A stretch of DNA of 64,000 nucleotides from Candidatus Methanoperedenaceae archaeon GB37 (GCA_905171695.1 LR991653.1:1146150-1210149), one strand, 5' to 3'; shown: positions 13,831 to 54,050, counted from the first letter of the stretch. The notes: generated by a model not told the origin, from the sequence alone. Numbers and translations: made by a program.

Positions 13831-14109
13831 CTATTTTATATGACATTCTTATATGACATTCCGCCCGCTCGGCATTGGAACAAAGCTCTCGGATGGTCTT
13901 GTACAATATGTTACATATGTTCTTTGTCCATTGTGTTTTTTTAGGGATATCTGCTTTAGCGGAATTGCTAAATGGGGTTGCTTTTTTCTCGTTTATGACG
14001 TTTATTTTTTCTGTTATCATAAAGTCGCCTTTTTTAACTTTCACTCGTCTCATGGTTAGGATATTCATAGATATCCTTTTGTGCTTTGTGGTTGTGGTGT
14101 AGAATATGA

Positions 14110-14230
14110 CTTTAGATTTTAGAGTGGGATAGAAAAAGAGGGAGATTGTCAAGCAGAGGTTGAGAAAACTCCCTGAGTATGTTAGAGATGCTGTAAGCAA
14201 TCTTAACATTGAGAAGAAAGCTGGAAGGTG
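14110..14230 (+). pseudogene. Possible ISNCY-type transposase 5' remnant
   Basis: EIVKQRLRKLPEYVRDAVSNLNIEKKAGR resembles the N-terminus of archaeal ISNCY transposases, from recall only. Confidence 0.35.
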
Positions 14231-14470
14231 AGCTACAAGACGATAGAGAGACTCTACTTCGGATGAAGAAGTTAAGACGGTTTTACACAATCACTCTGTT
14301 TTGTTGTTAAGAGAATAAGGAATATCTAAAGATCTCTCAGGAGACAGAACCAGTTACAGTATCACAGTAATAAAAACACTACAAGAACAAGCCCAATAAG
14401 AAAAGTGAACTACCAGCCCCTGAAGGGGCTGGTGTCCTTCCCCACCCTATATGTTTCGTGTTCCACATGT

Positions 14471-15011
14471 TCACATTGCAAAGTCGGATAGTGATGTCTG
14501 TCCTTCTTTGATTGTTTTCTGTTTCAAGCTGAAGTGCTCGTAGTCATCATCTTGCCAGTGTTTCTTTTGCTGTCGTTCGATATAGAACTGAACCATGTCG
14601 CTCGTAACGCGTCCCACTGATTCGTAGAAGTAACCGTCTGACCAGAAATGGTCTCCCCAGAGTTTTTTTGGAAACATCATTCCAACACTGTCTTCGAACA
14701 ACGTAGGATGAATATCCTTTCAGTTGTTCTGCGAGCTTGGCAGCACTATAGTTCTTGCAATCAATAACGAATACATGCATATGATCAGGTCCAAACTCTA
14801 TTGCACCTATTCGAACTTTGAGCATCCGGGCTTTGTCCCAAATAGCCGTTCGTACCACATTCTGAATCTCTTCTGATAAAAACACATCTCACCTGTATTT
14901 CGGCGTGCCTTGATTACTACGTAATCAAGGGTTGCTTACGAAGTAAGCAACCAACTGAAGGTGAAAGTTCGATCCGCCGAAACTGTGTCGAGCTGCCGCT
15001 AATCGAGTCAT
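14471..15011 (-). pseudogene. tnpA: Y1 HUH transposase TnpA, inactivated three ways
   Basis: MTRLAAARHSFGGSNFHLQ[45-bp insert]TPKYR*DVF...PDHMHVF (HUH)...frameshift in the A7 run...FWSDGYFYESVG (catalytic Tyr region). Confidence 0.88.
14908..14952. repeat. 45-bp twin-hairpin insertion within tnpA
   Basis: CCTTGATTAC-TAC-GTAATCAAGG followed by (G)GTTGCTTAC-GAA-GTAAGCAACC. Removing it restores CTT CAG TTC ACG CCG (LQFTP); no target duplication. Confidence 0.85.
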
Positions 15012-15201
15012 CCTATAGACCTCCAAAGATTTTTAAAATCCTACGCTAATACTATAACTCCCCTTGCGGGGAGCGCCGAAAATTTAGCACATAACGGTCA
15101 AGCAGACCCAATAATATGGCTTTCACTCTGTTACTAGAACCCCAATGCGACTAAACATTTCGGCATCCTGATTCATCCAGAGCCTGAAGGCTCTGGCGTT
15201 C

Positions 15202-15651
15202 TCAGTACCTTTGCAAGTAAACAGAATATAAGAGATAACCAGCCAAACCAGAAACAATACCCGAAAACCCACAAGATCGTATGGGCGCTGATGCAAGATA
15301 AATTGTTGATAAAGAACAGAGTACTGGTAGTACAGTAAAAAATAGAGCCATATTGATGTAGAATTTCTTTCTATTAGTCCTGAAGAAGAGTATCAAGTAA
15401 ATTAGAAGGAAATAATTAAGTAAATTCCATCTTAAGTGATGCCATAAATCTGTATGGACAAAGTTGGAGAGGTATATGCTGATCCAGGTGGGATTGGACG
15501 TCTGGAGGATGAGAACTCTCTCAAGCTCTGGATGAAAATGAACCATGATGTAAACGATGATCAAGAACAGAGGTACTATGAAATAAAAGATAAACCAGTC
15601 AAGCTTCTTATCATCCTTTAAGCAACCAAAATCAAGGTAATTTTCTTTCAT
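15202..15651 (-). pseudogene. Rhomboid-like intramembrane protease, C-terminally truncated at the IS605 end
   Basis: Multi-TM; FVH...HLRWN and CGFSGIVSG (GxSG) motifs. Reading frame stops at the 15177-15196 IS hairpin before the catalytic His helix. Confidence 0.6.
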
Positions 15652-15659
15652 TTCTCCAC

Positions 15660-15845
15660 CACCCTCACCCACTCATGCCCTTTTATCTTATCAATCCACT
15701 CCATGATCTCCCTATCTGCTTTGATTGCTTCGACAACTTCAATTATTGTTTTTAAGTTCTTATTCTCTAAATCTTTTAATTCTTTCTCTTCTTCTGGTTT
15801 TAGATTTCCTTCCAACTACACCTTCCAGTACAGCCGCGCCCAGCG
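15660..15845 (-). repeat. Diverged second copy of the methyltransferase 3' end (matches 16548-16733)
   Basis: ~185 bp, roughly 85% identical by eye. Reads RWARLYWKV*LEGNLKPEEEKELKDLENKNLKTIIEVVEAIKADREIMEWIDKIKGHEWVRVVEK. Confidence 0.9.
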
Positions 15846-15870
15846 TGGTGATCGATGCTTTTCCATTATT

Positions 15871-16300
15871 TCATTCAAATCCAAGCTCTTCTGGCGTTAC
15901 TGCTCTAATGCTCTCTATTCTCTCGAAATGCTTCGTATTCCTTGTTACAACCTCTTCAATCCCAACAGAGATGGCGGATGCTGCAATCAGACAATCGTTA
16001 AGCTCTATCTCTCCACCACTTTTTACCAGAGACGAATAAATTCTGCCACATTCAACTGCAATCGCCTTGTTAACATCTATCAGAATCACAGGAGTGAGGA
16101 GATCAAGCGTCTTTTTTAAAGCATCCCTTCTCGGTGACAGGTAAGCTCCCACACTAAGCTCGGCAACGGTGATCACAGAGGCAAATCCGGTATTCACCCC
16201 CTGAAGGGATTTGAGGAAAGATTCAGATGCAGATACCACATCTCTCCACATCTCTCTTGAGACAGTCCACAAAGATGGATGTATCCACAAATAACCTCAT
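15871..16300 (-). pseudogene. vapC: VapC/PIN toxin frameshifted by a 10-bp tandem duplication
   Basis: True start MRLFVDTSIFVDCL at 16300. CACATCTCTC x2 at 16237-16256; removing one copy gives a 139-aa PIN protein ending with VVTRNTKHF. Confidence 0.88.
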
Positions 16301-16524
16301 TCTATCCAGTCCAGTCGTTTAGAACCTCTCAACCCTCTAACAAACTCAGCACTATCTACATCATATCCCCAGGCACCAGAAGAAGCCTCCACCACATCTT
16401 CTCCAAGCTCCTTTAACCTCTCCTCCCTCACCATATCAAGTATCGAATGAAGCTCCCTCTCCAGGGCAAGTAGCTTTCTCTCCAAATTCACAGCAGATAT
16501 CATAATTTCATCTTTGCCTTTCAT
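16297..16524 (-). CDS. Putative VapB-type antitoxin
   Basis: 75 aa upstream of the PIN gene with ATGA overlaps on both sides; C-terminal GAWG...FVRGLR pattern seen in archaeal antitoxins. Confidence 0.65.
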   Translation of the reverse strand: MKGKDEIMISAVNLERKLLALERELHSILDMVREERLKELGEDVVEASSGAWGYDVDSAEFVRGLRGSKRLDWIE

Positions 16525-19500
16525 CTAAATATAATCATCCCTTCAATCACCCTCACCCACTCATGCCCTTTAATCCTCTCCACCCACTCCATGATCTCCC
16601 TATCTGCTTTGATTGCCTTGACAACTTCAATTATTGTTTTTAAGTTCTCATTCTCTAAATCTTTTAATTCTTTCTCTTCTTCTGGTTTTAGATTTTCTTT
16701 AAGCTGCGCCTTCCAGTAAAGCTTACTCCAGCGATCGTAATTTATGGGCTTGAGGTGTTTTGAGACCGCCTCTAACAGGTATTCCCTCGGTTCTGGATAC
16801 TTCTGGATACAAGCCGTCTTCTGCGAATTTCTCGTTGAAGTAGAGTTCGTAAACCAGGCTATCTGCAATCTGGCGGTCAAAGAATTCTATTGTGTCTTTG
16901 AGCTTGTTTCTGCGTTCCTCGGTGGCGTTGAGGAAGAGGAGGTAGTTACAGAGTATTGATACAGTGCTAATTACTTTTTCGTCAATTTCCTTAAAATTCG
17001 GAAGTGGAAAGTCTCTGACGTGCTTCGGATAGACATGAGAGTATGAACCTTGTAAACTCCCCGTTGCATACACATTCCCATAAAAGAAAGACATAAGCTT
17101 TGAGTTGAGAATACATAAAATAAATTCTGGCGTATAATTGTGGCACTCAATTATATCATATCCTTTAAATTTCGTTTTATCTTCTGGTTTGAGATTTTTG
17201 TAGTCTGTCGCCAATATTAGACCATCATCGCAATACATCTTTAAACGATCAATTGATCCAAACACGCTCTCATTTGCACCAGATATTTTCCTCACAACTA
17301 TTTTAGGTGATTCAAAAAGTTCAGGAACTCGTGGACCATACATAATCTGAGGAATATAATCAAGTTTAAGACCGCGATATCTTATTTCAAACCTTGACAA
17401 ATCTTTCCCTTCAAAAAACTTCTTTGGGTTTTCTTTCGGCTCTTTTGTAAGAAGATATTCCTCTCCAAACTCTCCTTTTTTCTTGCTCGATATTTGAGCA
17501 CCATAATTCACATAATAAATGTTCCCCAATTTAACTCCCGTTTTATTCATCTTTTCTATTATCTCCATCGTTGTGCTATCAGATTCGTATCTAAACTGTG
17601 ATTGGTGTAAACCATACCAAACCTTTTGTTGAACCTTATTTATCGTTTTTATCTCACCTTTTTCATCAACAAACTGTATCTTTATCTCATTCTCTTGGTC
17701 TACAGGAGTTGCAAGCTTCAGAACAAAAACAACACTTTGCCTCGATACACCCACAAATAAGTTTTGTTCACCACCGATTAATAAGTGTGTCATCGTGGTA
17801 TTTTCCAAGATATATCTCCTAATTTCTGTTGCGTATTTTTCTCTACAGATCGGATTTGGCAAAACATAAGAGAGATACCCTCCTATTTTTATTATCTTCG
17901 TTGCTTGGAGAATAAAGGGCATGTATATATCCCAGTGGGATTTTAATCCACATTTGTCTGAGTAAAGCATTGGTAAAATCTCTCTGGAGGTTTTATTAGA
18001 CTTTTCCATTTCCCAAGCACTGACATACGGCGGATTCCCCACCACCACATCAAACCCACCCTTCTCCAGAAACACCTCTGGGAACTCAAAAATCCAGTGG
18101 AATGTCTTTATCTTCTTCAAATCCTCTAAATCAATCCCATGCTCCTCTGCAAACTTCTCATCAAGCTTTTTGTTGAATAACTCGGTAATATCCTTCAAAA
18201 GTTTATTCAGCTTAACAGCATACCTTGAATTTAGCGAGGCTACAAGCACCTGAATGAGCTTCTCTTTCGTTCTCAAAACCTTCTCAAACTCGCTCCACCT
18301 TATCTTCTTTGATGAGAGAATGCGGTTCATCTCCTGGATCTCTTTAACAAGATCCCCCTCAATCTTCAGCGATCTGGAAATCTCTGGTAGGTATTTCCTG
18401 AGCTCCTCATCAACCTTTATTCTTTCCTGAATATACTCAATCTCGTGATCCTCAAATTCAAAGTCGAGGGTCACCTGCGGTCTTTCCTTCTTCCCTCTCG
18501 GAACATCAACATAACCTATAAGCGAGTTCCCATCTCTCAGATTGAAATGCACATTCGGAAATCGTATGAAAACACCCGCATTGACGTTGAAGTGTCTTGC
18601 CAGAGTTAAGAAAAGCCTCGCTCTCGCAACCTTCAACGCTGAGGGATTAATATCAACTCCATAGATGTTCCTTGAGAGGATTATGAAGAACTTGACACAT
18701 ACCTCAAACAACCCTTCCTTTTCAGGAATCTCAAGCAGGTTCAACGGCTTGATTTTACCATCCTCATCAGCGACAAGAATCTCAAGCTTCTTAATCCCCA
18801 CCTCCTCAGCCTTATCTCTCAGCTTCCTGTAAATATCAACCAGCACGTTTATGGCACCCTCTAAAAAGTGGGCTGAGCCTACTGCAGGATCAAGGATCTT
18901 TATTTTCGTAAGCAATTCAAAGAGCTTAAGCAATTCTTTTTTCTCTCCAGCGTTTATTATCTCATCTATACTCTTGTAACTTTTCCCGGATTCTTCATTT
19001 ATCCTGTCAACTAAATAAGGCTCAATTGTGTTCCTGCAGATGTAAGATGTGATCTCCTCTGGGGTGTAGAAGGCTCCGAGCTTCTTTCTCTCCATGTAGG
19101 TGATGAGCTTTTCATAAATCGATCCGAGGACGTATTCATCAATATCGCCATCAACCCAGTCTCTACTCTCAAAGAGATTGAGCAAAGGCACATCAAAATT
19201 AATATCTTCCTCGGAAATCATCCTCCTCCTGCCTTTAGGCGTTAAATTGACGAGCTCCTTTGTAATTCCTTCCCGATAGAAGCATTTGTCAGGAATAGTA
19301 ATTGCGAGATCGTCTTCCCCATTAAGAAAGACTGCCGGACCTATAACGACGCATTTACCGATCTCCTCATCCTCTGCAAAAGGTTCATCCGAGTAACCAC
19401 TTATCTGTCTGAAGAAATGCTTTAAAAATCCATAATAACTCTCGAATCCCCCAGTTAGTTTTTTCTGCTTCAGCTCCTTAAACTTTGTGATAAAATAATG

Positions 19501-20085
19501 CCTGTCATTGTTGAAAAAGCCCTTCTCCTGCAGATACCACAGTGTCAGCATCTGCATCATAAAGTTGTCAACAAATTCCTCTCTCCGCGCCTCTTCAGGG
19601 ATGCCTTTAACATTCTTAAGTAAAAACTCCCTGCATTTCTTGTAAAGAACATAAAACTCCTCTATTACATCCGACCTGCTTAACAAAGCCGATATATTCT
19701 CGCTCTTGGGCTCCTCTAAAGCTTTTTTCAGCTTTTTGAGGAAAGGATCGTTGATTTTGGCTATCGTCTTTCTTATCTGCTTGTTTGCTCTGTAATCTTT
19801 GACGACAAGCTCATCATTTCTATAAATTATAATCCCAATCCTCCCAACGTAACTGCCAAGGGGTTTGTAATTCATCAGCTCAGAAAGCTCTGCTTTCTTA
19901 TCAGTTTCAGCAAAAAGGAAGCCTTCAAACAGGTTGATATCTTCATCTTTTACGAAAATGTAGTCTTTGTCCTCTTTAGGAATATAGATAAGGTAGTTTT
20001 TCCCAGAAATTTCTATCCCCTCTTCCTCATACTTCTTAAGCCTCTTATCAATCTCTTTTTTCAGCTCTTCAGGCTTAACAACCAT
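16521..20085 (-). pseudogene. Eco57I/TaqI-like N6-adenine DNA methyltransferase with C-terminal TRD; tail frameshifted by a 10-bp duplication
   Basis: GAFYTPEEI, LDPAVGSAHF (motif I), DIN, GNPPY (motif IV). TTCTGGATAC x2 at 16791-16810; removing one copy gives a single 1184-aa frame ending at 16521. Confidence 0.88.
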
Positions 20086-23000
20086 AGAACCACCCTAAAT
20101 GCTTCTTTTCAACTCTTAGCGATCTAATATCGGCAATTCCCCACATTAAAAACTGGCTGTAGAGTGTATTAACAACTCCTCTAACATCTCTGATCTTCAC
20201 ATGATTGTTTTTATCAACCTCGATCAAATTCCTATCAACCAGCAGCGATTTCATCTCCCGTGAATACTGATAGTAGGGTAGTAGCTGCAGCACGTTAAGA
20301 ACTGACTTGTAGTTTTCAAGCTCCCTCGCCCTCTCCCTCTCTAAAATTAAAGCATTGTACAGGTTGTAAAGGAATCCCTTTTGCTCAGGTTGATACTCCC
20401 TCTTTAACTTTTTCACTTCTTTTTCAACCTCTTTTTCAATCTCCTTCAGCTTCTCGGCTGCAACATCAAGCTTTACAGGATTAATCTCTTTGTTCTTTTC
20501 GTCTACGAGCTCAAGAAAGACGAGAGGTGATTCATACCTCAATCCTCCATCACCAATGCTTATTATCTTCTTATCTATCCTTCCAAAATCTCCACGATAG
20601 AACTCATAAATGCTGTAGATCTTTCCACTGCCCGATTTGATGTAGGTGTAGTATGGCCCATCATCGAGATTCCTAACCTCTTCAAAGTCCTCCCTTGTTA
20701 TGCCAAGCTCGTACTGTATAATGTTAAGGAGCTTATACTCATCAATCTGTTCCTGCGGTATGCCGCCCTCAAACCACTTGAACTCCTCAGAAATACTAAA
20801 CTCTTCAAGATCGGTCATAGAGAGCTCTGCAATGCTTTTTATCCTTTCACCAAATGTTTCAACGCTTATCTCCTCCTCAGGGCTCAGTATCTTGGATTCC
20901 TTACCCACAACAAGCGTTATATCCTCAATCTTCTGTTTGAGCTTGTTCAAAATCCCCACAAGAACTTCTATCTCTCCCGAAGGAGTGAAGTTAAGGACGT
21001 AAACGTCCTTCTCATTCCCTATTCTGTTAACCCTTCCAACCCTCTGGACGATTACCATCGGATTCCATGGCAAATCAAAGTTAATAACAGCGTCAGCATC
21101 CTGCAGATTGACCCCCTCACTCAAAGCATCAGTTGAGATTAGAATTTCAATTTCTCCGTACTTTCTTACTTCCTCTTCTCCACTATTTGCTTTTGGAGCG
21201 AATCTCTTTATGAGGTTGATCTTTGTTGTCGTGTCGGTTTCGCCTGTAACAAGTGCTATCTTTATCCTGTCTGTCCTCTTATCCTTAAGCCACGGGTGCA
21301 GATCAACTTCTCTTTCAATCCACTCCCTAAGATTGTGGTAGATATAGTAGGCAGTGTCTTTGTATTGTGTAAAAACGATGAACTTCTTCCCGTTAAGTGT
21401 CGGGATAGCTGAAAGCTTCTCAGATTTGTATCTTGGGTTTGTGATGAACTGCTTTAGGACTTCGAGCTTTGGGTCGTTCTCATAGCAGAAGATTTTTGAT
21501 TCAACAATCTCATCTTCCTCCTTTGGAATTATCCCAAACACCTTGAAGTCATCGTTTTCCCTGACTTTAAGCCTGTCAAGAGTCTCAAAAATTTCATCCA
21601 TCAGCTTTAAATCCTGCTCAAGATTGTGAAGGGCTATTTTCAGCCCCATCCTGATTTTTTCGATTGGTGTAAATGCTTGAAGGGCATATTCTTCAAGATA
21701 TTCAGTTAACAACTTGACGACCTTATCAAACCAGGTTTCCTCCTCTTCAGCTTCTGCATTGAATTCCTGAGACACTTCTTCAAGATCTTTTTTGATCTTG
21801 GCCTCTTCTAATGCCTTAATAATCAGCTCTTTCAATTCCTCTTCACTCATTATTTTGTCAACGGATCCCTTAAACAGGGTGTAGAAGATCTTCTCTTTCG
21901 CGTATATTTTTCTGAGAGTCGTTTCAAACGGGAATATCCCGCTTTCTAACCTCTTACCCAGCAAAAGCCTGAAAAGGTCGGAAATCTCTATTACCCTGTA
22001 ACTTTCTTCCTCTTCGTCCTCTTTGAACACGATATACCTTACACCGTATAGCTTCGTGTGCTCAAAATTGATTCTGTCAATGTTTCTGGATATACGCTTT
22101 ATCAACTCATTAAACCCGCCTTTGTAGAAGGGAGAGTAATCGAGGCTGTAGGGTTTGGGATCTTTGAAAATGAGTTTTTTACCATCGACCTTCAGGTCCT
22201 TGAACTGGTCCAGGATGTACTTTCTCGTTCTCAGAACCATTACTTCATCCAGAACTTTTCTTTTAATCTCCGTGGCAACTCTTTTAAGCTCTTTTTTAAT
22301 CCCTTCATCTCCCTTCTCCTCATATTCACTTTTAAGCTTCTTGTATTGTCTTACCAGCTCGTCAATCGGGATGTTTTTCATTCTGAAAGTGATAAGGGTG
22401 TCATCCGTGAATATTCTGATCAGGTTGTAGAGGTCGTCTATCGTGTTGTTCAGGGGTGTGGCTGTAAGAAGCATGAACTTATTTGGAAAGTTGTTTGATT
22501 TTTTCTGCAAGGCTCTTGCTGCATTCCATCGGTTTGTATTTTTGTTTCTGTATTTATGAGCCTCATCGATGACAAAGAGATCATATTCTTCAGATATTCC
22601 TTTTAATTCCTCGCTTATAATTCCTTTTTTCAGATCTGCTCTGTAATTCTGAAAGAGCCCAAGCGAAAGAAAGGCTATCTTCCCAAGGAATTTTTCTCCA
22701 TTCTCATCATAAATTTCGTATATTTTGTGGTTGTAATCCCCTTTCACCATTCTTTTGAAGTTGTCCCTGAAGAAGAACTCCGTGTTTATCTTCACCCTCT
22801 CTCCCCTCTCCAGTCTTGCCAGTGTTCTCTCATCAGCTCTACCTACAAGCAGATCCTCCCACTGGGAAATGATGGATGGGGGCAGAATCAGCATTACAGC
22901 AGGGTATTCTTTCCCTTTTGGCAGCCAGTAAGGATGTTTTCCGTTTAAAAACTCCTGAATAATTGCTCCAGCCATAAAACTCTTTCCTAATCCCACAGAA

Positions 23001-23821
23001 TCTGCCAGAATAGCTCCATTATAGTAATTCAGGATATTGATAGCATTTATGACCCCAACAAGCTGAAATTCCATCAGTATGTCTTTTTCTATGAGGTTCA
23101 GAACTCGGCCTTCGGTCCACCTATAAACGAGATACTTGAAGAGCGTCTGGGGATCTATCAGTTCTCCAACCTTTGGATACGGGCTCTCGGGCAAAACCCC
23201 AGAGATATTGATAACCTTCAAGAGATCCTCTCTGAACTCAACCGCCTCATCCCACAGATCATCAAACCACTGATTTAGATAAAGCACCTCCTCTCTTGAT
23301 GTCAGAAGAACATTGAGCTCCTTGTTTTTTGTGATCCCCTCTGCTGTAAAGTTGGATGATCCAACAACAGCAAGGCCAGGAGAGCTGTATCTCTCCTCAG
23401 GGTTGGTTAAGAATACGTACAGCTTTGCATGCAACCTCGATTTATCAAATAGCCTGACATCAATCGTATTATTCGCAATAAAATCCTTTAAATCCCCCAA
23501 TCGCTTTATCTGTTCCTCATTAAGGTCTCTTTTCTGAAGATCCTCAATCATTCTTTGCTTGAAGACCTCTCTTAAGCTATATCCTGCCACAAGCTCTTCT
23601 TTCGTGGGATAGGTCGTCTCATTCCCCATTACAATCTTCAAGAAGGGCAGGCTTTCATAGTCATCTGGAAAGTCCTCCTTCACCAGCGAAAAGCCGCTTA
23701 AAAAGAAGTAACCTATCGCAAACTTTGCCTCCTTTGACCTCCTGATCTGATCTCTTATAACCTTTACAAGCTCCCGATCCGGGGTGTTGTCTATTATGCC
23801 TGGAGCAAGAGGGTTATTCAT
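20075..23821 (-). CDS. PLD-nuclease plus SNF2-like superfamily-2 helicase fusion
   Basis: RLHAKLY...VGSSNFT (PLD HxK..GSxN), ADSVGLGKS, IDEAHKY, LLTATPLNN, SEGVNLQ, QRVGRVNR. Start taken at ATG 23821 behind AGGTGTGA. Confidence 0.9.
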   Translation of the reverse strand: MNNPLAPGIIDNTPDRELVKVIRDQIRRSKEAKFAIGYFFLSGFSLVKEDFPDDYESLPFLKIVMGNETTYPTKEELVAGYSLREVFKQRMIEDLQKRDLNEEQIKRLGDLKDFIANNTIDVRLFDKSRLHAKLYVFLTNPEERYSSPGLAVVGSSNFTAEGITKNKELNVLLTSREEVLYLNQWFDDLWDEAVEFREDLLKVINISGVLPESPYPKVGELIDPQTLFKYLVYRWTEGRVLNLIEKDILMEFQLVGVINAINILNYYNGAILADSVGLGKSFMAGAIIQEFLNGKHPYWLPKGKEYPAVMLILPPSIISQWEDLLVGRADERTLARLERGERVKINTEFFFRDNFKRMVKGDYNHKIYEIYDENGEKFLGKIAFLSLGLFQNYRADLKKGIISEELKGISEEYDLFVIDEAHKYRNKNTNRWNAARALQKKSNNFPNKFMLLTATPLNNTIDDLYNLIRIFTDDTLITFRMKNIPIDELVRQYKKLKSEYEEKGDEGIKKELKRVATEIKRKVLDEVMVLRTRKYILDQFKDLKVDGKKLIFKDPKPYSLDYSPFYKGGFNELIKRISRNIDRINFEHTKLYGVRYIVFKEDEEEESYRVIEISDLFRLLLGKRLESGIFPFETTLRKIYAKEKIFYTLFKGSVDKIMSEEELKELIIKALEEAKIKKDLEEVSQEFNAEAEEEETWFDKVVKLLTEYLEEYALQAFTPIEKIRMGLKIALHNLEQDLKLMDEIFETLDRLKVRENDDFKVFGIIPKEEDEIVESKIFCYENDPKLEVLKQFITNPRYKSEKLSAIPTLNGKKFIVFTQYKDTAYYIYHNLREWIEREVDLHPWLKDKRTDRIKIALVTGETDTTTKINLIKRFAPKANSGEEEVRKYGEIEILISTDALSEGVNLQDADAVINFDLPWNPMVIVQRVGRVNRIGNEKDVYVLNFTPSGEIEVLVGILNKLKQKIEDITLVVGKESKILSPEEEISVETFGERIKSIAELSMTDLEEFSISEEFKWFEGGIPQEQIDEYKLLNIIQYELGITREDFEEVRNLDDGPYYTYIKSGSGKIYSIYEFYRGDFGRIDKKIISIGDGGLRYESPLVFLELVDEKNKEINPVKLDVAAEKLKEIEKEVEKEVKKLKREYQPEQKGFLYNLYNALILERERARELENYKSVLNVLQLLPYYQYSREMKSLLVDRNLIEVDKNNHVKIRDVRGVVNTLYSQFLMWGIADIRSLRVEKKHLGWFYGC

Positions 23822-23896
23822 ATTCACACCTTTCTCTCCCACTACCATCTCTCTAACTAAATGCCCGCTCCATTTCTTCTTGTTTGTAATAAATTC

Positions 23897-25418
23897 CTAA
23901 ATTCCCATACTTTTAGGCACCATGATACTAAACTTCTCAAAAATCTTCCTTTGCTGCTTGGTTAATTCCTGAACTATAATCTCATCCTCATACACCTTAC
24001 ACTTCAGATTCCTTAAGGTGAGTAGAACCTCCTCCACAGTGTAATCTCTCCCTAATTCTCTCTTCAGCAGTGAATAAACAACAAGTGAAGCGAACTGCAG
24101 AAACAGGTAGCCCCTCAGCGTCTCTTCCTTATGCACTCTCAGAGGAAGCAGGTTCAGATCATCCTTTGGAAAGCCAAACAGCTTTTCTGCAATCTGTCTT
24201 GTGTAATACAAAGATATTACATTCTCTCTATCCGGTTCAGAAGAGGAAATGAGAATCATTATCCCTTTCTTCATCAAAATGTATTCCATCTCCTCTTCTT
24301 CATCCTCTTCAATCTCATCCATTACCTTAAGCAGAGTTCTTCTTATCTCTCTTCCCTTTCTTTCAGGATCAAGTACAACATAAGCATAGACTCTTTTACC
24401 AAATAACTCAACTTCTCTTTGCTTTACAAACAGTACTCTTCTTCCATACCTTACAGCATTCCTGTAACTCTCTAACTCTCTGGATTCCTCAAGAATAGGC
24501 CTCTTGTACAGCTTCCTTAAAGCCGGCAATCTTATCAGGAACTGTATTTCCTCATTGTAAAGCTCCTTTATATTCTCTTCAGAGAAGAATCCTGCATCAA
24601 GAATGAGAAAGTATCTTGATACACCATACTTCTTTAACTCCTCCACAGTTGCCTTGAGGGTTGACACATCAACAATATTACCTGCAATATACCTGAAAAA
24701 CAAAGGAAGTGATGTACTCCTGTCAATAACAAGCAACAACTTGATTTGTTTGTCTATTTCCTCGTTATGCCATCCCCATGATGATCTTGGAATATTTATC
24801 TGGTTTGGAAGAGCAGTTGTATCAATTACTATTCCTTCTGAGGGTGTTATCTGTCTGATGTATTCTTTGAAGAATTCCCTCTGGATGCTTTCATCACCAA
24901 TCTCCTCAAGAAACTCACTTATTCTTTGTGAACTTATATCAACATCAAAGAACTTCCTGACTATGTTGCCCTCATACCACATCCTTGCATACCTCATTGC
25001 AGATGGATAACACAATCGGTAGAAGATGAGTGCAAGAAACATCTCTTTTTTAAGGTTCTCAAAGAATGTTACTCTATTAATGAACTGGTTGAGGAAATAA
25101 GTATCACCAAAATCTAGAATTAACTTCTCTCTCCTCTCTCTACTCTTTTTCTTGAATATTTTCTTCTCCTTGTCAACAACAACTCCCAGATACTTTGTTT
25201 TCTGCCTCGGCTTCTTCTTTTCAGGATCCCAGTAAGATGTTACCTCGTAAGCATATTCTTTGTTCCCGAACTTCTTGTATCTGATGAAGCTCATAATGGT
25301 CAATTAGGCATTATAATATATAAATATTTTCCGTAATACAATACTTGCTTTTTCCTGGAAAAAGAGAGCTTATGGGGAGAGTTTACTTTTCTAGTGCCTA
25401 ATTATTTGGGAATATTGG
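23897..25418 (-). mobile_element. IS1634-family element with apparently intact 465-aa transposase (CDS 23897-25294)
   Basis: VIDTT, LILDAGFFS, RQIAEKLF and GYLFLQF DDE-type motifs. Imperfect ends CTAAATTCCCA / TGGGAATATTGG flanked by a candidate 6-bp duplication AAATTC (23891-23896, 25419-25424). Confidence 0.8.
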
Positions 25419-25439
25419 AAATTCGCTTTTTGTTTGGTT

Positions 25440-25680
25440 TTGGCAGTGTATGTGAAATCGTCTATCTTTTTCACTTTTAACCATCGTATCTAGTGGGTTT
25501 TTTTTTATTTTTCTCAAGTCTTTCATTCCAACGTGAGTATAGATCTCTGTTGTTTTTGAGTTTTTGCGACCGAGCAACTCCTGAATAACTCCTGAATGTA
25601 TCATCAGATCAACTCCGCTTTTGAGTTAATGGGAGTGGCGAATGAGTGCCTCATGGAATGAACTGTAATCTTTCTCCTTG
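25440..25680 (-). pseudogene. Tyrosine recombinase C-terminal remnant (XerD/IntI-like)
   Basis: ITVHSMRHSFAT, then IQELLGRKNSKTTEIYTHV...NPLD. The His of LGH is replaced by Arg; frameshifts include an 11-bp duplication at 25576-25597. Confidence 0.85.
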
Positions 25681-25686
25681 TCTCTG

Positions 25687-25820: not shown

Positions 25821-26061
25821 CCACTGCAAAGAGATCAGGATTTGAAAGTTTCTTATGTGTGCTTGATTTGTCGGGGATGATGATTTCGTGGGTCATGTAT
25901 AGCTTTCTGTAACCACTGATTTATAGGATAGGCGTTTACATTTTATCCCTTTTTTAGCCCTTATATCTGGTGCGACGGGTTTGGGGGTGGATCGTGATCG
26001 CTTGATAGGATTCTTCGTGATTCAGTGATCAGAAGAGCGGTTATGGGGGGACTGTGTGGTA

Positions 26062-28505: not shown

Positions 28506-30023
28506 TTAGCAGCACCTCATGAGGGCTTCGAGAAACGCTCCAACATCGGCTTGATCCAGCCTATAGTCTGCCAGGGTTTCATCCCTCTCGCCAACGAGGA
28601 TTGCACAGCCAACGCCTTTAACCGCTCTAAAGGCGTCTTCGTCCGTTAGATCGTCACCAATATATACCGGAAAAAGATCCTTCTCAGTGTCGAACTCGTT
28701 CAACTCGTTCATTATCATCTCAACCACTCTTCCTTTGTTCCAGTCAATATCTGGCTGCAGTTCAAAGACCTTCTTAGCGTATGAGATGCGCAAACCATCT
28801 TCTCTTGCCAGTTCAACCTCTCTTTTCACACGGGGGATCATCTTCTCATCTGCTCTGCGATAATGGACTGCGATCGAGTACTTTTTTCGCTCAACGAGAA
28901 CGCCTTCGATTGATGAGAGTGTTTTATGCAGTCTCTCTTCTGCGCGATCGAGGAGGGGAAGCAACCTCTCTGCCTCCCTCTTCTCCCACACAACCCCTTC
29001 AGGGGTGAGGAGGTGGAATCCGTGGCTTCCAGCATAGTATACTCCTTTTATTCCAACCATCTTCTGAATCTCACTCAGGTCTCGACCGCTTATGATCGAG
29101 ACCACGCACTTCGCTGCAAGCATCGTAACCCGCTTGCGCATCTCTTCTGAGAGTCGTGCATCCTCTGGTCGTTCAGCGATCGGCGTGAGAGTTCCATCAT
29201 AGTCAAGAAAGACGAGGAGAGTCTTTCCAGCCGCGTCTCTAATGATCTCATCTATCTGTTGGAGTGCAGATGACAGTTTTTTCACGAGTTTCACACCTGA
29301 GAGATCGGTCACCACAAGATCAGCGCCCTCTCTTAAAAGCGCTTCTCTAACCAACTCCCCATCCTCCTCCCTTGCCTCCCTTGCTACGGCAATGATCATA
29401 CCAAAGCCCCCTCTACGTCCAGCCCTGATCCCAGAGATGGCATCCTCCACAATGATTGCGCGTGCAGGCTCAACACCAAGCTCCCAGGTGGCTTCAAGGA
29501 AGATATCAGGAGCAGGCTTACCAGGAATACCTTTAGTCTCAAGATCCCTGCCATCAACGATAACATCAAAGAGACCCGTAACCCCTGCAGAATCGAGTAC
29601 CTGAGAAGCGTTCCTGCTCGCAGAGATGAGTGCCACCCCAGCGCCCATCGCTTTAAGCCTCGCTATAAACTCGATCGTATCTCCAAAGGGCTCAACACCC
29701 CGCTGGCTGATTCGCTCCATGAATAGGAGATTCTTGCGGTTTCCAAGACCACATACAGTATCAAACCCTGGATCATCGTCCGGATTCCCCTCTTCAAGCA
29801 CTATGCCTCTTGAGAGAAGAAAACTCTGAACCCCAGAGTAACGCTCTCTGCCATCCACATACCTCCTGTAATCATCCATTGTGAACGGCTTGAGACCTCT
29901 CCCTTCAAGGAACTGGTTGAAGACCTCCTCCCAGACGGCTGCATGGAGACTGGCAGTATCTGTGACAACGCCATCCATGTCAAAGATTGCAGCATCAAAC
30001 CCATCCATCATGATCGTCTCCAT
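28506..30023 (-). CDS. HAD beta-phosphoglucomutase-like domain fused to trehalose-6-phosphate phosphatase (OtsB-like)
   Basis: Domain 1: FDMDGVVTDT, GKPAPDIF, VEDAISG. Domain 2: FLDYDGTLTPI, YAGSHG, WNKG, YIGDDLTDEDAF. Confidence 0.9.
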   Translation of the reverse strand: METIMMDGFDAAIFDMDGVVTDTASLHAAVWEEVFNQFLEGRGLKPFTMDDYRRYVDGRERYSGVQSFLLSRGIVLEEGNPDDDPGFDTVCGLGNRKNLLFMERISQRGVEPFGDTIEFIARLKAMGAGVALISASRNASQVLDSAGVTGLFDVIVDGRDLETKGIPGKPAPDIFLEATWELGVEPARAIIVEDAISGIRAGRRGGFGMIIAVAREAREEDGELVREALLREGADLVVTDLSGVKLVKKLSSALQQIDEIIRDAAGKTLLVFLDYDGTLTPIAERPEDARLSEEMRKRVTMLAAKCVVSIISGRDLSEIQKMVGIKGVYYAGSHGFHLLTPEGVVWEKREAERLLPLLDRAEERLHKTLSSIEGVLVERKKYSIAVHYRRADEKMIPRVKREVELAREDGLRISYAKKVFELQPDIDWNKGRVVEMIMNELNEFDTEKDLFPVYIGDDLTDEDAFRAVKGVGCAILVGERDETLADYRLDQADVGAFLEALMRCC

Positions 30024-37629: not shown

Positions 37630-38199
37630 TTACCTGCTGATCAGCTCGATTGTGTCACAGATCTTCTTTATAGTGGCTCTCGCAGTCTCCATCCCAAGAG
37701 TGTCATCTGCCGCTTCCCGTTGGACCGTGCCACCGAAGTGACTGTTATCACCGACCACTATCATGCCATGTATATGCATCCACGCATGAATGGTCTGAAT
37801 GGTCGTCTCCTGACCACCATTACGTGAACCACCCACAGCAGCAGCGCCGCCAACCTTATTCTTAAGTGCAAAACCTGCTCTTCGCAACGGGAGCGTACGA
37901 TCAAAGAAAGCCTTCAACTGCGCCGTGAGAGTACCAAAGTAGACAGGGCTGACAACGAAGAAGCCATCCGCTTCCTCAAGGAGATCATAGATTCCTACCA
38001 TGTCATCCGTAATAGAACACCCCTTCTCGTCCCGACACGTGCCACAATCACTACACGGCGCAACATCGAGACCCGCGGGGTCAATCCTCTCAACCTCAAA
38101 ACCACGCTCTTCTGCCAGGGCAAGACACGTCTCAACGATCCTTGCACTGTTCCCATCCTCATTCGGACTGCCAGAGATACCAACGATCTTCAAATTCAC
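37630..38199 (-). CDS. Iron-sulfur flavoprotein (Isf)/flavodoxin family
   Basis: GISGSP, CSDCGTC...C cluster motif, SPVYFG, GGSRNGGQE. Start taken at GTG 38199. Confidence 0.9.
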   Translation of the reverse strand: MNLKIVGISGSPNEDGNSARIVETCLALAEERGFEVERIDPAGLDVAPCSDCGTCRDEKGCSITDDMVGIYDLLEEADGFFVVSPVYFGTLTAQLKAFFDRTLPLRRAGFALKNKVGGAAAVGGSRNGGQETTIQTIHAWMHIHGMIVVGDNSHFGGTVQREAADDTLGMETARATIKKICDTIELISR

Positions 38200-44490: not shown

Positions 44491-44723
44491 ATGGAACTAT
44501 TATTTGAAAGACATGATTTTGTTTTTATGAATAAAAAAATTGATTTCCCACTTATTAAAAACAAAGTTGGAGATATAGCTCCTCGAATCATCGCAGGTGC
44601 TGCAGGAGGTTTAGTTACAGGTAACCAGTTACAGGTAACCCTGTCGCGGGAATTGTAGGATTTGTAGCAGGATATATCAGTAAAGACGCTATTCGTATAT
44701 CTACAAGTAAAGTAAAGGATTAA
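44491..44723 (+). pseudogene. Small glycine-zipper-like membrane protein frameshifted by a 14-bp duplication
   Basis: AGTTACAGGTAACC x2 at 44613-44640. Corrected 72-aa frame contains IIAGAAGGLVTGNPVAGIVGFVAGYI. Confidence 0.55.
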
Positions 44724-44838: not shown

Positions 44839-45228
44839 ATGAAGTGGCAGGGAATCTCTAGGCGTAAATCGACTGGTGGTCGATTGAGAAGGGCGCGTGG
44901 CAAGAGGAAGTTTGAAGCTGGGCGTGAGGCGGCTGAGACGCACGTGGGGGCGCATGTGAAGGAGGATGTGAAGAAGGTTATAAAGGCGCGTGGTGGTACG
45001 AAGAAGTGCAGGCTCCTTCGGGCAAAGATGGTTAATGTGGTGGATCGAGAGAGTGGGGTTGTTACGAGGGCAGAGATCGAGACTGTTGTGGAGAATTTGG
45101 CAAACCAGCACTATGTGAGGCGTGATATCGTGACGAAGGGTGCTGTGATCAAGACCAGTGCGGGGATTGCTCGTGTCACAAGTAAGCCTGGCCAGGATGG
45201 TATAGTGAATGCAGTATTGATAGAATGA
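44839..45228 (+). CDS. rps8e: 30S ribosomal protein S8e (intact copy)
   Basis: RRKSTGGRL...[39 protein letters not shown]. Confidence 0.96.
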
Positions 45229-48456: not shown

Positions 48457-48867
48457 TTATATTAGCTTCAAACTTTTCTTCGACTTTACTTTCTCATGTA
48501 ACTTTGCATCCGTAGTTAAAAGTGGCGCTTTCTCTCTTTCTGAAGCGGCTATGAAGAGGGAATCGTAGATCGTGATCTTATCCGTGATCGCGATTTCAAA
48601 AGCATCTTCGATTACTTCCTGTGAACTTATGACCCTGCACACACCAAGAATAAAATCTACACTACTTTTCAGTGCTTTTGATGCAACCTCCTTTGATTCA
48701 TTGAAGAATATCACCCTCTTCCAGGCAACGTTTGCCACTTCGGCGATCGCAAGATCAACTGTTATCAATTCGTAATTCTCTGCAACTTTTTCAGCTCTAT
48801 CAGAAGATTCTTCTCTGAAGAATATCGCCGCGATAACACCTGAATCGAGGATTACCCTATCTGGCAT
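48457..48867 (-). CDS. vapC: VapC/PIN toxin (intact)
   Basis: VILDSGVI, EVAN, IYDSLFIA, LLTTD. Confidence 0.9.
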   Translation of the reverse strand: MPDRVILDSGVIAAIFFREESSDRAEKVAENYELITVDLAIAEVANVAWKRVIFFNESKEVASKALKSSVDFILGVCRVISSQEVIEDAFEIAITDKITIYDSLFIAASEREKAPLLTTDAKLHEKVKSKKSLKLI

Positions 48868-49245: not shown

Positions 49246-49654
49246 TTATCCCATTAGCCAGTTCTCTATTTCCAGACCCTTTATCCTTCTAAAGTGTTTT
49301 TCATTGTCTATTGCAAGAACCATGCCTTTAACCAGACAGGACGCTGCTATAAGTATGTCGACATCCTCTATCAGTTCTCCTCTCTTCATCAACTCAGCAT
49401 AGATCTCTGAAGCTCTCTCAATAATATCTTTATCCAGCATTATTATCTTGCTTTTATCCACTAATCCTTTAAAATCCCTTATTTTCTCCTCGTTTCCTAT
49501 GTATTTCAGCCCCTGAAGTATTTCATAATAGGTGAGTATACTGAAGGCAGAGCGCATCAAATTCGTCTAAGTATGCTTCTACTTTAGCGATGACATCCCA
49601 GTTTCCTCTTAGAAAAGCTATGAGTGTGCTCGTATCTAAAAGAGACTTTTTCAT
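49246..49654 (-). pseudogene. vapC: VapC/PIN toxin, +1 frameshift near 49555
   Basis: MKKSLLDTSTLIAFLRG in one frame; SILTYYEIL...DILIAA...DNEKHF in the next. Confidence 0.85.
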
Positions 49655-49863
49655 AGTTTTAGTGCCCCACCAAAAAGATTCCTTCTTTTTACTGCCTCCT
49701 GAAATATTTTCTCTTCTTCCTCGCTCAGATCCTTCAGGATTCCTGCATATTTCAAAATATCTCGCCTCTTCTTTATCTCTATCTCAACTTCCTCCCCCTC
49801 TTTCAAATCCAGTTTCTCAAGCGGCTTCAGCACATTATCCTCATACACAGCTTTTATGATCAT
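49651..49863 (-). CDS. DUF104/AF2212-like antitoxin
   Basis: MIIKAVYEDNVLKPLEKLDLKEGEEVEI. Confidence 0.88.
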   Translation of the reverse strand: MIIKAVYEDNVLKPLEKLDLKEGEEVEIEIKKRRDILKYAGILKDLSEEEEKIFQEAVKRRNLFGGALKL

Positions 49864-50348: not shown

Positions 50349-51305
50349 AAGTCTCGGTCGTGGTTTGTACATACACCATTGAGCTATTTCAGGACACATT
50401 AGCGTGCATAGGCTCACTTGTTAATCAAGATTACGTAGATAAAGAGATGCTTCTCGTCATGGATCGAGATGAGAAGTTGTATCAGATGTTTCTCGACACC
50501 ATTCCTGATTCTGTGAAAATATTAATTAATGAACGTCCAGGGCTTTCAGAAGCTCGGAACCTCGGGATAAAGAACGCAGAGGGGGATGTTATCGTGTTTA
50601 TAGATGATGATGCAGTTGCAGAAAAGAGTTATCTCTCAAATCTCACCAAAAACTACGAAGATGAAGATGTTGTTGGCGTTGGTGGGAAGATCTTGCCAAA
50701 GAGGAGACCGAGTTATCCAGAGGAGCTTTACTGGATCGGAGGGTTCACATATAAAGGATTTCCAGAAGAAAGATCTGAGGTTAGGAATGTGCTTGGATGC
50801 AATATGTCCTTCAGAAGAGAGGTCTTTGATAAAGTTGGTCTCTTCGACACAGAACTTGGCAGAGTTGGAAGAAAGCTTGTGACAGCAGAAGAGACCGAGT
50901 TCAGCATAAGGGTCTTGAACGCTCTACCAGACTCGAAGATCATCTACGATCCATCAGCCATCGTTTATCATAAAGTGCATGAGTATCGAGAAAATCTCAG
51001 ATACATGCTCTCTCAGATACATGCTCAGAAGAGGATACCATGAAAGCATCTCAAAGGCACAGATCAAGAGAGAGCACACCAAAGATTCCAATGATAAAAC
51101 ACTTGCAACAGAGGACAAATACCTTAGTTATCTGATTAAAAATGCAATTCCTGAGCGATTGAAGAGAGCATCGATGGGAGAAAGAGTCGCATCCAACCTG
51201 AAAGAGGTATTTATGTTGATTTCGGTGATCGGAAGTGTCGGAATCGGGTTTGTAGTAGGGAATCTAACTGTAAATACCAGAACACCCAAAACACAAGCCC
51301 AATAG
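50345..51305 (+). pseudogene. GT2 glycosyltransferase (AglG-like) frameshifted by a 16-bp duplication
   Basis: VSVVVCTY, GLSEARN, FIDDD, GCNMSFR, AEETE. TCTCAGATACATGCTC x2 at 50995-51026; removing one copy gives 314 aa. Confidence 0.88.
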
Positions 51306-51313
51306 TTGCTGAC

Positions 51314-51677: not shown

Positions 51678-51890
51678 ATGAAGTAGAGGATCAGGGTCAC
51701 GAAGCAATTTGAGAATGGCTTCGCAAGATCAGAGAAGACGCTCAAAAAGCGAATAATCAAGCGAATTGATATGCTAAAGACCGATCCCTCTTCATCTAAA
51801 GCCTTGCATCGTGGTTTAAAGGGTAGATACAGTCGGAGAATCGGTGATTACAGGGCGACAAGCGAAATTTTTATACACTATGCTGTATGA
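51678..51890 (+). pseudogene. relE: RelE/ParE-family toxin, stop at codon 3 and truncated
   Basis: MK*RIRVTKQF...LHRGLKGRYSRRIGDYR. Confidence 0.75.
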
Positions 51891-51899
51891 GGTGATAAT

Positions 51900-52133
51900 A
51901 TGAAAACATTAAGCTACATAATCTTGCTCAGAAGAGAACCTGAGGGCGGTTATACAGTGATAGTTCCATCTCTCCCTGGCTGTGTAACCTAGGGGGACAC
52001 AATAGAAGAAGCGATAGAGATGGCAAAAGAAGCTATTGAGCTATACATAGAGAGCTTAAAGGAGCATGGCGAAGAGATACCAACAGAAGAAGGGACTTTG
52101 GAATATACTTTAACGGTAGGGGCTTATGCCTAA
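51900..52133 (+). pseudogene. hicB: HicB antitoxin with in-frame TAG at codon 31
   Basis: EPEGGYTVIVPSLPGCVT*GDTIEEAIEMAKEAI. Confidence 0.85.
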
Positions 52134-52354
52134 ACTCCTTTCTCTTACCTCCCAGAAAATTATCAAGGTGCTTGAAAAGAAGGGATTTGTTTGTATAGAT
52201 AGGATTAAGGGAAGCCATCATATTTTACTACCACCCGGAAATGAAAAGAAGAGTTGTTGTTCCTTTTCATAAAAGGGATTTACCAAAGGGAACGTTGCTT
52301 GAAATTTTAAAACAGGCAGGTATAAATAAGGAGGAGTTAAGAGAGTTACTATGA
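52126..52354 (+). pseudogene. hicA: HicA toxin, +1 frameshift
   Basis: MPKL....KIIKVLEKKGF...RIKGSHHI, then after the shift VVVPFHKRDLPKGTLLEILKQAGI. Confidence 0.85.
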
Positions 52355-52360
52355 TGAAAA

Positions 52361-52462
52361 ACTTCGCCTAACGCAGCGTATACACGGCGGGCTAACGCCC
52401 TTGCCCTTCAGGACATCCCGACTTCGTCGGGATGTCGTATATGCTGGAGACGATACACGCAA
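52361..52462 (+). repeat. attC-like imperfect palindrome downstream of the hicBA unit
   Basis: GCCTAAC (RYYYAAC) at 52366-52372; CAGCGTATAC/GTATATGCTG arm pair; perfect 11-bp hairpin GACATCCCGAC-TTC-GTCGGGATGTC (52412-52436). The right core reads GATACAC rather than GTTRRRY. Confidence 0.5.
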
Positions 52463-52828
52463 TAAACGAAGATAAGAGGAGAGTAACATCGATTGCACTG
52501 TGAAATGTGAAATGCTATTCATAGAAAGAAAGAAAGTTTATGAACGGATGGATGGTTGATAATGCAAGATGCAGTAGAGGTTATGTGGTTGAAGATCGCA
52601 TAAAAGAAAAGGGTTTGAGAAAGATGCGTGGAGATATGCTAAAGAATTGGTTATGCGTGTTATGATATGGGGTTAAGATGAGGATTATGCAGATGTAAAA
52701 GGAGGTGTTTTTGGATATGTTAAACTATAAAATGCAGTTATCCATAAAATCCCACCAGAAGCTCTATCATAATGCATGGCGAACGTGAGCAATTTATAAA
52801 TTGGGGAGATGAATTAGAGATATGACAA

Positions 52829-53072
52829 GTGGATGAAATTAAAGAAATCTTCAAAGATAACCGATTTGCACTCTCATTAACTCTTATCGCATTTACAATC
52901 TGGTTATCCTCAGTTCCACAGGCGAGAACCAATTTATTTGCAGAAGGGATAGGTGATCTCGGTCTCATTACAATTCTACCAGTAACCTATTTTATAGCGT
53001 TTTCGCTGCTCACAATCTCTTTTCTTATTGCTTTGAAGTCTGAGAAAAAGAATGAGATGTTGCTGTTTTTGC
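52829..53072 (+). pseudogene. N-terminal fragment of a multi-pass membrane protein interrupted by IS debris
   Basis: Two hydrophobic helices (…GDLGLITILPVTYFIAFSLL…); the frame runs into the IS copy at 53073. Confidence 0.45.
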
Positions 53073-54050
53073 AGGGATGTTCAAGACGAAAGAGACGTGT
53101 GACGAGTGTGACGACTATATCATAGAATATTATATTGTTGAGATTATGAGGTTCTTCTTTGGACTCTCTTCGATTCTCTTTTACGCATTTCTGAGAGACC
53201 ACGGGGAGTTGAGATACATTTTAAACCTTAAAAGTGCTTAAATCATTCTCAGATTACGAAGATTTCAGGAAGAAATCACACAGGACAAAAGTAAGGATAG
53301 ACAATATAATAAAAAGGAATGTTAAAGAAAAAGCAGACGAGATCTATGGACTGGAGACCACAGTTGTAACAGTGGATTTAAACAGGCTGAGGAAAGGGAA
53401 AAAGATGATAAAGGATGGATTTTTTGATGCAGAATTCTGCCATGATTCTCTTAGAGGTTCTGAAGTCGGCTATATTGTCTGCACACTCTGATAAATCTCA
53501 CGAATTTCTCGGTTGTTGAAGAACGAACCAAAGAAGGAAATCTGGGAAGAGATAGTAATATCAAATCTGAGAACTCAAAATGGGAAAATAAAGGTTATCA
53601 TGGCTGATGCTGGATTCTTAGCCTACAATAATATTCTGTTACCTCTTAACCTCAGAACAATTCCTCTAATAAAAGTGAAAAGTAACATAGATGTAAAAAA
53701 GCTTAAAAAGAGAATTGAAAATCATCCAGCAAACCTATTCTGGCTTGACAGCAAATACAACAAGAATCTATCAAGCTTACTTAAAGATTTCAGTTACGCA
53801 ATAAAACAAACAGTGGAAGGGATTAACAAATACGAAAAATTCACTGAAACAAGAAGCAGAATAGAATCTTTCTTCAAAATAGCATAAGGCAATATTTAGT
53901 TTGAAAGACTCGCATCTCTATTACCGCAAACATGCGATTACAGAAATAAAAACGATCTCCTATGCTACACAATTGTTCTGTCAGTTCTACTTGAAGAATA
54001 GAATAAACATGGAAAGATTTATTGAAAGAATCAAGAGAAGAAAACTCTAA
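53073..54050 (+). pseudogene. Degenerate DDE transposase, copy 2
   Basis: IKVIMADAGF and RSRIESFFK. 53073-53714 is an inverted near-identical match to 32686-33317 plus a private 9-bp duplication at 53097-53114. Confidence 0.72.

Follow-up and report, generated by a model that had tools for sequence, protein, structure and literature searches.

What kind of event leaves a short piece of DNA repeated once, head to tail and letter for letter, with nothing inserted between the copies? The question is raised by a 64,000-nucleotide stretch of the genome of Candidatus Methanoperedenaceae archaeon GB37 (GCA_905171695.1, LR991653.1:1146150-1210149; hereafter the window), in which an earlier note had pointed out seven tandem duplications of 9-16 bp and had read them as insert-free traces of transposition or of staggered-nick repair. 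We consider it probable that such exact short tandem duplications are one heritable mutation class, that they originate in break or replication repair independently of insertion sequences (IS), by the filling-in of staggered breaks, and that purifying selection then sorts them. The feature belongs to a known mutation class and is not a new element or system. Our results concern 64 kb of one genome and one sister strain.

All seven listed duplications proved exact, both by a coordinate check and with TRF, but the list was not complete. An exhaustive search of the window for exact two-copy tandem repeats returned 11 with a unit of at least 9 bp, all with copies that are 100% identical (Table 1); the four that had been missed (4236, 28693, 29366 and 37787) are all 9 bp long, in frame and within open genes. 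The expectation from dinucleotide-preserving shuffles is 0.30, with a maximum of 3 in 200 shuffles, and for units of at least 10 bp six are observed against 0.08 expected. A third-order Markov null agrees with the shuffles, and the excess is spread across 6-16 bp with no peak at a single length. This comparison with a shuffled expectation, proposed in the earlier note and run here within the window, indicates a clear excess and not a random frequency. Relative to natural DNA the excess is smaller than relative to shuffles: unrelated archaeal and bacterial loci hold 19 such duplications per 198 kb, mostly of 9 or 12 bp, and E. coli K-12 holds one in 150 kb (~0.4 per 64 kb). What is distinctive is the set of six frame-breaking duplications of 10-16 bp. 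Tandem repeats with a period of 17-700 bp were not found in the window. The 8-bp class was dropped as evidence: the case at 23890 is part of the inverted repeat of an IS, removing one copy at 24465 would break an intact transposase, and the case at 54854 is not a duplication in the sister strain.

Repeats of this kind could be an artefact of assembly, polishing or library preparation, a suspicion fed by the PacBio long reads behind the probable source genome (PMC7175092) and by the fact that the strain-private events described below each come from one sample. Strains were compared by contig layouts from independent metagenomes, namely Logan contigs rebuilt from the source run (X1; ERR3841957), a sister strain (X3) and two other populations (X4 and X5); exact-protein look-ups gave matches from the source run only. 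The rebuilt contigs show zero differences from the window across six of the seven sites first listed, at 27-41x depth. The 13-bp duplication is two-copy in X1, X3, X4 and X5, and the 14-bp duplication is found as two exact copies in X3, X4, X5 and X6, from four studies, both thus recurring in runs of other studies. The vapC duplication has two copies in X1 and X3, that is, in two cultures, and is absent elsewhere, X4 and X5 showing a clean deletion of 10 bp. The alleles follow a consistent phylogeny, and an artefact is extremely improbable.

The same comparison gives polarity to several of the events. The 16-bp duplication in the GT2 glycosyltransferase gene is present in X1, and X3, X4 and X5 show a clean 16-bp deletion; single-copy alleles of both GT2 and vapC therefore exist in other populations, as expected if, as had been proposed, the duplications are real and derived and the single-copy allele restores the genes. 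The duplication at 28693 is missing from X3 and from the ~86% identical JGI contigs L018 and L019, which serve as outgroups and are two of the four loci returned by a metagenome scan with GH65; it is thus a derived state confined to the window strain. For the methyltransferase (MTase), a scan of genome contigs returned only distant homologues from unrelated taxa, and these served to polarise its duplication. The second 9-bp copy at 53097 is absent from the IS paralogue near 33290, hence derived, in agreement with the earlier note. The two-copy state is thus the derived one at GT2, vapC and 28693 (from relatives), at MTase (from homologues) and at 53097 (from the paralogue), a set that excludes 4236, 13836, 25576, 29366, 37787 and 44613, the linker at 29366 being too variable. 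The MTase duplication has two copies in X1 and X3, and those at 4236, 25576, 29366 and 37787 are likewise common to both; 4236 is counted as shared because every gap letter of the X3 contig could be assigned to another place, and at 29366 one of the X3 copies bears a substitution at 29374. Since some alleles are shared and others are private, the duplications span a range of ages.

The youngest events show that the process has not stopped. Duplications of 5, 7, ~6 and 16 bp are private to X3 and duplications of 9 and 16 bp are private to X1; the class arises repeatedly and independently in two sister strains and is ongoing in both. Exact tandem duplications make up six of the nine indels of at least 5 bp seen between X1 and X3, the other three being a 27-bp indel with 5-nt microhomology, a complex 9-bp change and a ~7-bp gap in 44.0-44.8 kb; besides the indels counted, ~5 gap letters of X3 in 41.7-44.0 kb were left unclassified. 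A dead stretch of ~640 bp (25424-26061) holds three duplications across both strains. Over both strains, the lengths (5, ~6, 7, 9, 10, 11, 13, 14 and 16 bp) are continuous.

Absence of microhomology at the junctions had been claimed for the seven listed cases, and it stands: in six of them the periodicity ends with the two copies, and in one (16236-16256) it extends by 1 nt. Among the 11 window duplications, seven show no such extension, three extend by 1 nt and one (4236) by 3 nt; over all 14 events the numbers are 10, 3 and 1, respectively. Six-base flanks are identical to the unit ends at 28 of 132 positions (21%), which is chance level and argues that there is no decayed microhomology either. 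Microhomology of at least 3 nt is absent from the recent strain-private events whose flanks were readable, and a comparison of duplicated units and their flanks gave no common motif and no target-site consensus. A palindrome (GTTAC-AG-GTAAC) in the 14-bp unit hinted at an operator; this candidate was set aside, having no supporting evidence.

These junctions bear on the possibility that the duplications were mediated by microhomology, through replication slippage or unprocessed Okazaki flaps, with arms that decayed or are too short. This route is reported to be dominant for tandem duplications across life, archaea included (bioRxiv 10.64898/2026.02.28.708716), flap models predict a bias towards duplication, and 4236 does have its 3 nt. 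However, the youngest, strain-private events have 0-1 nt, so that decay cannot be invoked for them, and the chance-level similarity between flanks and unit ends points the same way. Direct repeats of at least 3 nt bound the duplicated segment in only one of 14 events, which is not the arrangement that defines a microhomology-mediated duplication, as against ~50% of within-species variable duplication loci with >3 bp of microhomology in that preprint (binomial P ~0.001). We therefore regard a microhomology-mediated origin as very unlikely.

The duplications had been described as confined to accessory or intergenic DNA. This does not hold, since four 9-bp in-frame duplications sit inside intact genes, two of them (28693 and 29366) in a 511-aa gene that encodes a beta-phosphoglucomutase/trehalose-phosphatase fusion. 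All duplications inside intact genes are 9 bp long and in frame, while all those with a length not divisible by three lie in a pseudogene, an accessory or dispensable gene, or a spacer; frame-breaking survivors are found only in vapC, the MTase tail, GT2, a small open reading frame (ORF), a recombinase relic, an IS remnant and spacers. The in-frame cases in intact genes indicate that the bias towards accessory DNA reflects selection and not targeting. This distribution is the pattern that purifying selection would leave on an untargeted process.

It had also been claimed that removing one copy restores four genes, and the one-copy forms of vapC, MTase, the small ORF and GT2 do read as open frames. 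For MTase this gives a 1187-codon open frame with a 1184-aa product, to which homologues align up to residue 1178-1184, as against ~1091-1095 (the duplication site) otherwise. The duplication replaces only the last ~92 residues of MTase, downstream of the TaqI_C specificity domain, and being past that domain it may not abolish methylation. The two-copy GT2 gene encodes 235 aa plus a 108-aa fragment, and the one-copy form is a 322-codon frame (317 aa from the first start codon). One-copy VapC recovers a canonical N-terminus (MRLFVDTSIFVD...) and a PIN match over 2-117/120 at 49.4 bits, compared with 38.1 bits for the two-copy form. Without one copy of its 14-bp unit the small ORF encodes a 60-aa glycine-rich protein. 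The tyrosine recombinase relic (..HSMRHSFAT..IQELLG..TTEIYTHV) retains the catalytic C-terminal part and contains stop codons besides the 11-bp duplication.

Alleles that can be restored so precisely might have been selected as reversible off-switches, the loss of one copy re-activating vapC, MTase and GT2 in a form of phase variation. One-copy loss restores each gene exactly, the gene types affected phase-vary in bacteria, and both alleles of GT2 and of vapC occur in nature; still, these alleles track strain phylogeny as simple mutations do, and the 13- and 14-bp duplications are two-copy in all populations sampled. No sample shows a mixture of alleles at the contig level, at which minority alleles cannot be seen. 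Dead DNA and spacers are equally rich in duplications, the one in MTase alters only the tail past the specificity domain, and a neighbouring vapC was killed by a different kind of frameshift. These loci, with only two copies of complex 10-16-bp units, contain no hypermutable multi-copy simple repeat tract. We give very little credence to a switch function.

Could the duplications be transposase footprints, left where an IS inserted, duplicated its target and was then excised with rejoining of the flanks, or where transposition was aborted after staggered cleavage? Two resident elements matter here. The first, IS-A, is of the IS5 family and present in ~20 copies by depth; it is active, generates target duplications of 9 bp and differs in occupancy between strains, X3 having an empty site with one copy of the 9-mer, so that its transposition was recent. 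The second, IS-B, carries an intact transposase (23897-25294) whose assignment to the IS1634 family in the earlier note we confirm; in this family target duplications of 5-6 bp are the norm, and only IS1549 and IS1634 make variable ones of 8-514 bp (PMC2266710). Moreover, 9 bp is the commonest duplication length in the window, the duplications at 13836, 25576 and 53097 each lie within ~155 bp of an IS border, and the bias of duplications over deletions fits a fixed 5′-stagger polarity.

The lengths speak against footprints. Recent events of 5, ~6, 7, 9, 16 and 16 bp fit no single IS, and nothing exceeds 16 bp, whereas IS1634 and IS1549 reach far beyond. IS-B itself has no canonical flanking target duplication in a search of up to 600 bp; all that its ends show is a direct repeat matching at 10/11 positions and offset from them by 4 and 2 nt, which may be counted in favour of footprints. 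When target-duplication lengths were checked, the only resident one that could be cleanly measured was the 9 bp of IS-A, the remnants at 53073-54749 (IS-C) being a mosaic without terminal inverted repeats whose target duplication is not measurable. The continuous 5-16 bp series does not match it: no more than the 9-bp class could be accounted for by a resident 9-bp target duplication, and that length also leads in unrelated genomes, as in-frame tolerance predicts. Nor do the units share a motif. No IS-occupied allele or loose end at the junctions appears in the X3-X6 contigs shown, whose layouts are truncated and prone to drop rare alleles.

Transposon target duplications (~9-13 bp in IS4/IS5; PMC2266710) resemble those of the window in that they are exact, short, direct, free of microhomology and produced by 5′-staggered fill-in. 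They differ in coming with an insert, an occupied allele and a characteristic length, none of which is seen here, and Sulfolobus acidocaldarius yields the same mutation class as the window. That strain is not known to have active IS elements, and DDE transposases do not cleave a target unless strand transfer takes place. Overall the transposon-scar reading is poorly supported and we hold it to be improbable, the 9-bp class remaining compatible with it. Of the interpretation first offered, the fill-in of staggered nicks or breaks survives as the simplest chemistry, while insert-free transposase footprints are not supported, in view of the continuous lengths, the 9-bp length found for IS-A alone and the lack of anything longer than 16 bp.

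We hypothesize that the duplications arise as follows. Two nicks 5-16 bp apart on opposite strands, with 5′-overhang polarity, or an equivalent staggered double-strand break, would be followed by extension of both 3′ ends to the end of their template, so that each end would bear the segment between the nicks. The filled-in ends would then be rejoined without annealing. Fill-in of a 5′ stagger and direct rejoining would give an exact duplication without shared bases, and gene conversion among genome copies could fix the resulting allele. The ceiling of ~16 bp might reflect how long a stretch between nicks can be and still melt apart at growth temperature.

Several points weigh against this explanation. 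The mechanism is inferred, and nothing in the window sequence identifies a nuclease, polymerase or ligase; to our knowledge, Ku-type end joining is lacking in most archaea. Random opposed nicks should equally give 3′-overhang breaks and hence microhomology-free deletions, and none was found among the nine X1/X3 indels of at least 5 bp, one gap being uncharacterised. Some excess of duplications is present in natural DNA of other thermophile metagenome-assembled genomes too, which makes specificity for this lineage uncertain, and the counts are small because only 64 kb and one sister strain were covered. A more ambitious version of repair by fill-in would give this lineage (probably GoM-Arc1 / 'Ca. 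Ethanoperedens') a dedicated or unusually active pathway by which 5′-staggered breaks, up to ~16 bp long, become exact duplications with no annealing, the breaks perhaps coming from a variable-stagger IS1634-type transposase or another resident nuclease; it would be the main source of indels of at least 5 bp and of recent pseudogenes, and its alleles would be precisely revertible. This we find doubtful.

A comparable class of mutation is known from the laboratory. In pyrE of wild-type S. acidocaldarius, tandem duplications >5 bp account for 13 of 163 spontaneous mutations (8%), compared with 3 deletions >5 bp (PMC7785828, Table 6), and they are independent of accessory polymerases (PMC7785828, PMC3139894). 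Both cases concern a thermophilic archaeon in which gene-inactivating short tandem duplications outnumber deletions of similar size. The events in S. acidocaldarius are laboratory mutants of one reporter gene in a crenarchaeon, whereas those described here are fixed natural alleles in an uncultured euryarchaeon; the likeness is one of class and counts.

A recent survey separates microhomology-mediated from arm-less tandem duplications under the names MTD and NMTD and finds that the latter make up 50-60% among the perfect duplications of reference genomes from every kingdom, compared with 25-30% among within-species variable loci and 13% among de novo events (Wei et al. 2026, bioRxiv 10.64898/2026.02.28.708716). 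The window duplications look like NMTD, being exact head-to-tail two-copy repeats without flanking arms. The recent events of the survey are mostly microhomology-mediated, and here, in contrast, the recent strain-private events are essentially all arm-less.

Duplications by fill-in at nicks or breaks are reportedly formed in eukaryotes as well, with paired nickases in plants and through fill-in by Pol alpha-primase in C. elegans. By analogy, the proposed chemistry would be the same in these cases and in duplications after HELQ loss (PMC8654963), the ends being filled before they are joined. The eukaryotic enzymes (Ku/Lig4, Pol theta, CST-Pol alpha) are different and are not known in this archaeon.

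If the pattern extends genome-wide, it would show, in natural populations, a class of archaeal mutation so far known mainly from Sulfolobus reporter spectra, and it would mean that at least one archaeon forms its recent short duplications without microhomology, contrary to the dominance of microhomology claimed for all domains. The duplications are a recognisable cause of recent pseudogenes among the defence, toxin-antitoxin and glycosyltransferase genes of alkane-oxidising archaea, and annotators can repair affected genes by collapsing one copy. They reveal no new mobile-element activity and no regulatory switch.

Table 1. Tandem duplications and IS elements of the window, with sites duplicated only in the sister strain X3
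Feature	Position	Strand	Remarks
IS-A, IS5-family (IS903-like)	103..1112	-	inverted repeats TGCTGTGTTGAA..; flanked by 9-bp target duplication GATCTGAGA
CAATA, single in window	1524..1528		X3-private 5-bp tandem duplication
9-bp exact duplication, GTCTTTCAG x2 (+3 nt of third copy)	4236..4256		in frame; ORF of no assigned function (3843-4559, minus strand)
CTGCGCG, single in window	12124..12130		X3-private 7-bp tandem duplication; intergenic
13-bp exact duplication, TTATATGACATTC x2	13836..13861		intergenic; 5 bp past KaiC-like stop; 10 bp from repeat-element border at 13871
10-bp duplication (1 nt extra)	16236..16256	-	frameshifts vapC at ~codon 17
10-bp duplication	16791..16810	-	frameshifts Type IIG/DrmMI-like N6-MTase at residue ~1092, past TaqI_C domain
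IS-B, IS1634-family, intact 468-aa transposase	23891..25423	-	8-bp "duplication" at 23890 is part of terminal inverted repeat
11-bp duplication	25576..25597	-	C-terminal relic of tyrosine recombinase
TCAGAT, ~6-bp duplication	~25600		X3-private; complex
TTCTTATGTGTGCTTG, single in window	25850..25865		X3-private exact 16-bp tandem duplication, no microhomology
9-bp in-frame duplication (NEL-NEF)	28693..28711	-	trehalose-phosphatase domain, intact 511-aa gene
9-bp in-frame duplication (ARE-ARE)	29366..29384	-	variable linker of same 511-aa gene as 28693
9-bp in-frame duplication	37787..37804	-	within FMN-reductase domain gene
14-bp duplication, AGTTACAGGTAACC x2	44613..44640	+	truncates 60-aa glycine-rich small ORF
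16-bp duplication	50995..51026	+	frameshifts GT2 glycosyltransferase
9-bp duplication	53097..53114		~25 nt within left end of degenerate high-copy IS remnant

The window is archaeal (signal recognition particle RNA at 62794-63109; GC 45%) and mixes core genes (IF2, GluRS, GyrA, UvrB, PyrBI, S8e) with mobile and defence DNA. A PLD(HKD)+SNF2 helicase (PADLOC C3a139, E 7e-158) adjoins the Type IIG/DrmMI-like N6-methyltransferase, and vapBC pairs, the GT2 glycosyltransferase, IS5-family and IS1634-family elements and degenerate high-copy remnants are present as well. The same DNA is found in marine-sediment and hydrothermal-vent metagenomes of many studies. Run metadata, together with the published account of the Ethane37 and Ethane50 cultures (two strains at 98% ANI, PacBio data; PMC7175092), point to 'Ca. 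Ethanoperedens thermophilum' as the probable source.

The island with vapBC, MTase and the HKD+SNF2 helicase (14355-23920) diverges by ~0.2% between X1 and X3, compared with ~1.1-2.5% in the flanking core DNA, a difference that suggests a recent exchange or sweep, which would have brought along the two 10-bp duplications of the island. A 191-nt direct repeat (88% identical; 15655-15845 and 16543-16733) brackets vapBC, one of its copies being the 3′ end of MTase. In complex metagenomes its segments reach depths of up to ~1100x against ~14x for vapC, which indicates that the module is widespread. Two other PIN genes behave differently from each other: a second vapC (49246-49700) is divided between two frames, the cause being a small frameshift and not a tandem duplication, and a third PIN gene (48457-48867) is intact.

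Among the mobile elements, the window copy of IS-A has its transposase split by a frameshift at the ..KGWIK.. motif. In the IS remnants at 53073-54749 and 32678-33573, depth steps from ~300x to 1600x against ~35x for unique DNA, and their transposase-like frame (..MADAGF..RSRIESFFK..) is broken. The dead stretch between IS-B and GH65 (25424-26061) contains the recombinase relic and a 134-nt GH65 fragment (25687-25820) that matches 26737-26870 with 88% identity; in the JGI contigs L020 and L021, synteny stops at 26020 and continues with sequence like 54146-54720.

The promoter and 5′ part of the S8e gene are themselves duplicated on a larger scale (41477-41733 and 44769-45118; 96-98% identical), and a 93-bp deletion in the first copy is delimited by a 9-nt repeat (GGCGCGTGG). 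Between the two copies sits an insert of ~3 kb that contains the 14-bp duplication and encodes a PGF-CTERM beta-propeller protein whose N-terminus is the S8e fragment. At position 7772, X3 carries 27 additional bases, in frame and delimited by a 5-nt repeat (TCAGT). Either the window strain underwent a classical microhomology deletion or X3 gained an insertion; the case stands in contrast to the arm-less duplications. Finally, the repeat element that starts at 13871 has a further copy elsewhere in the genome, and before that copy stands ATTTTATATGACA, the same 13 nt that start the region of the 13-bp duplication (13833-13871), so the 13-bp unit may belong to the variable outer end of the element or to a preferred target.

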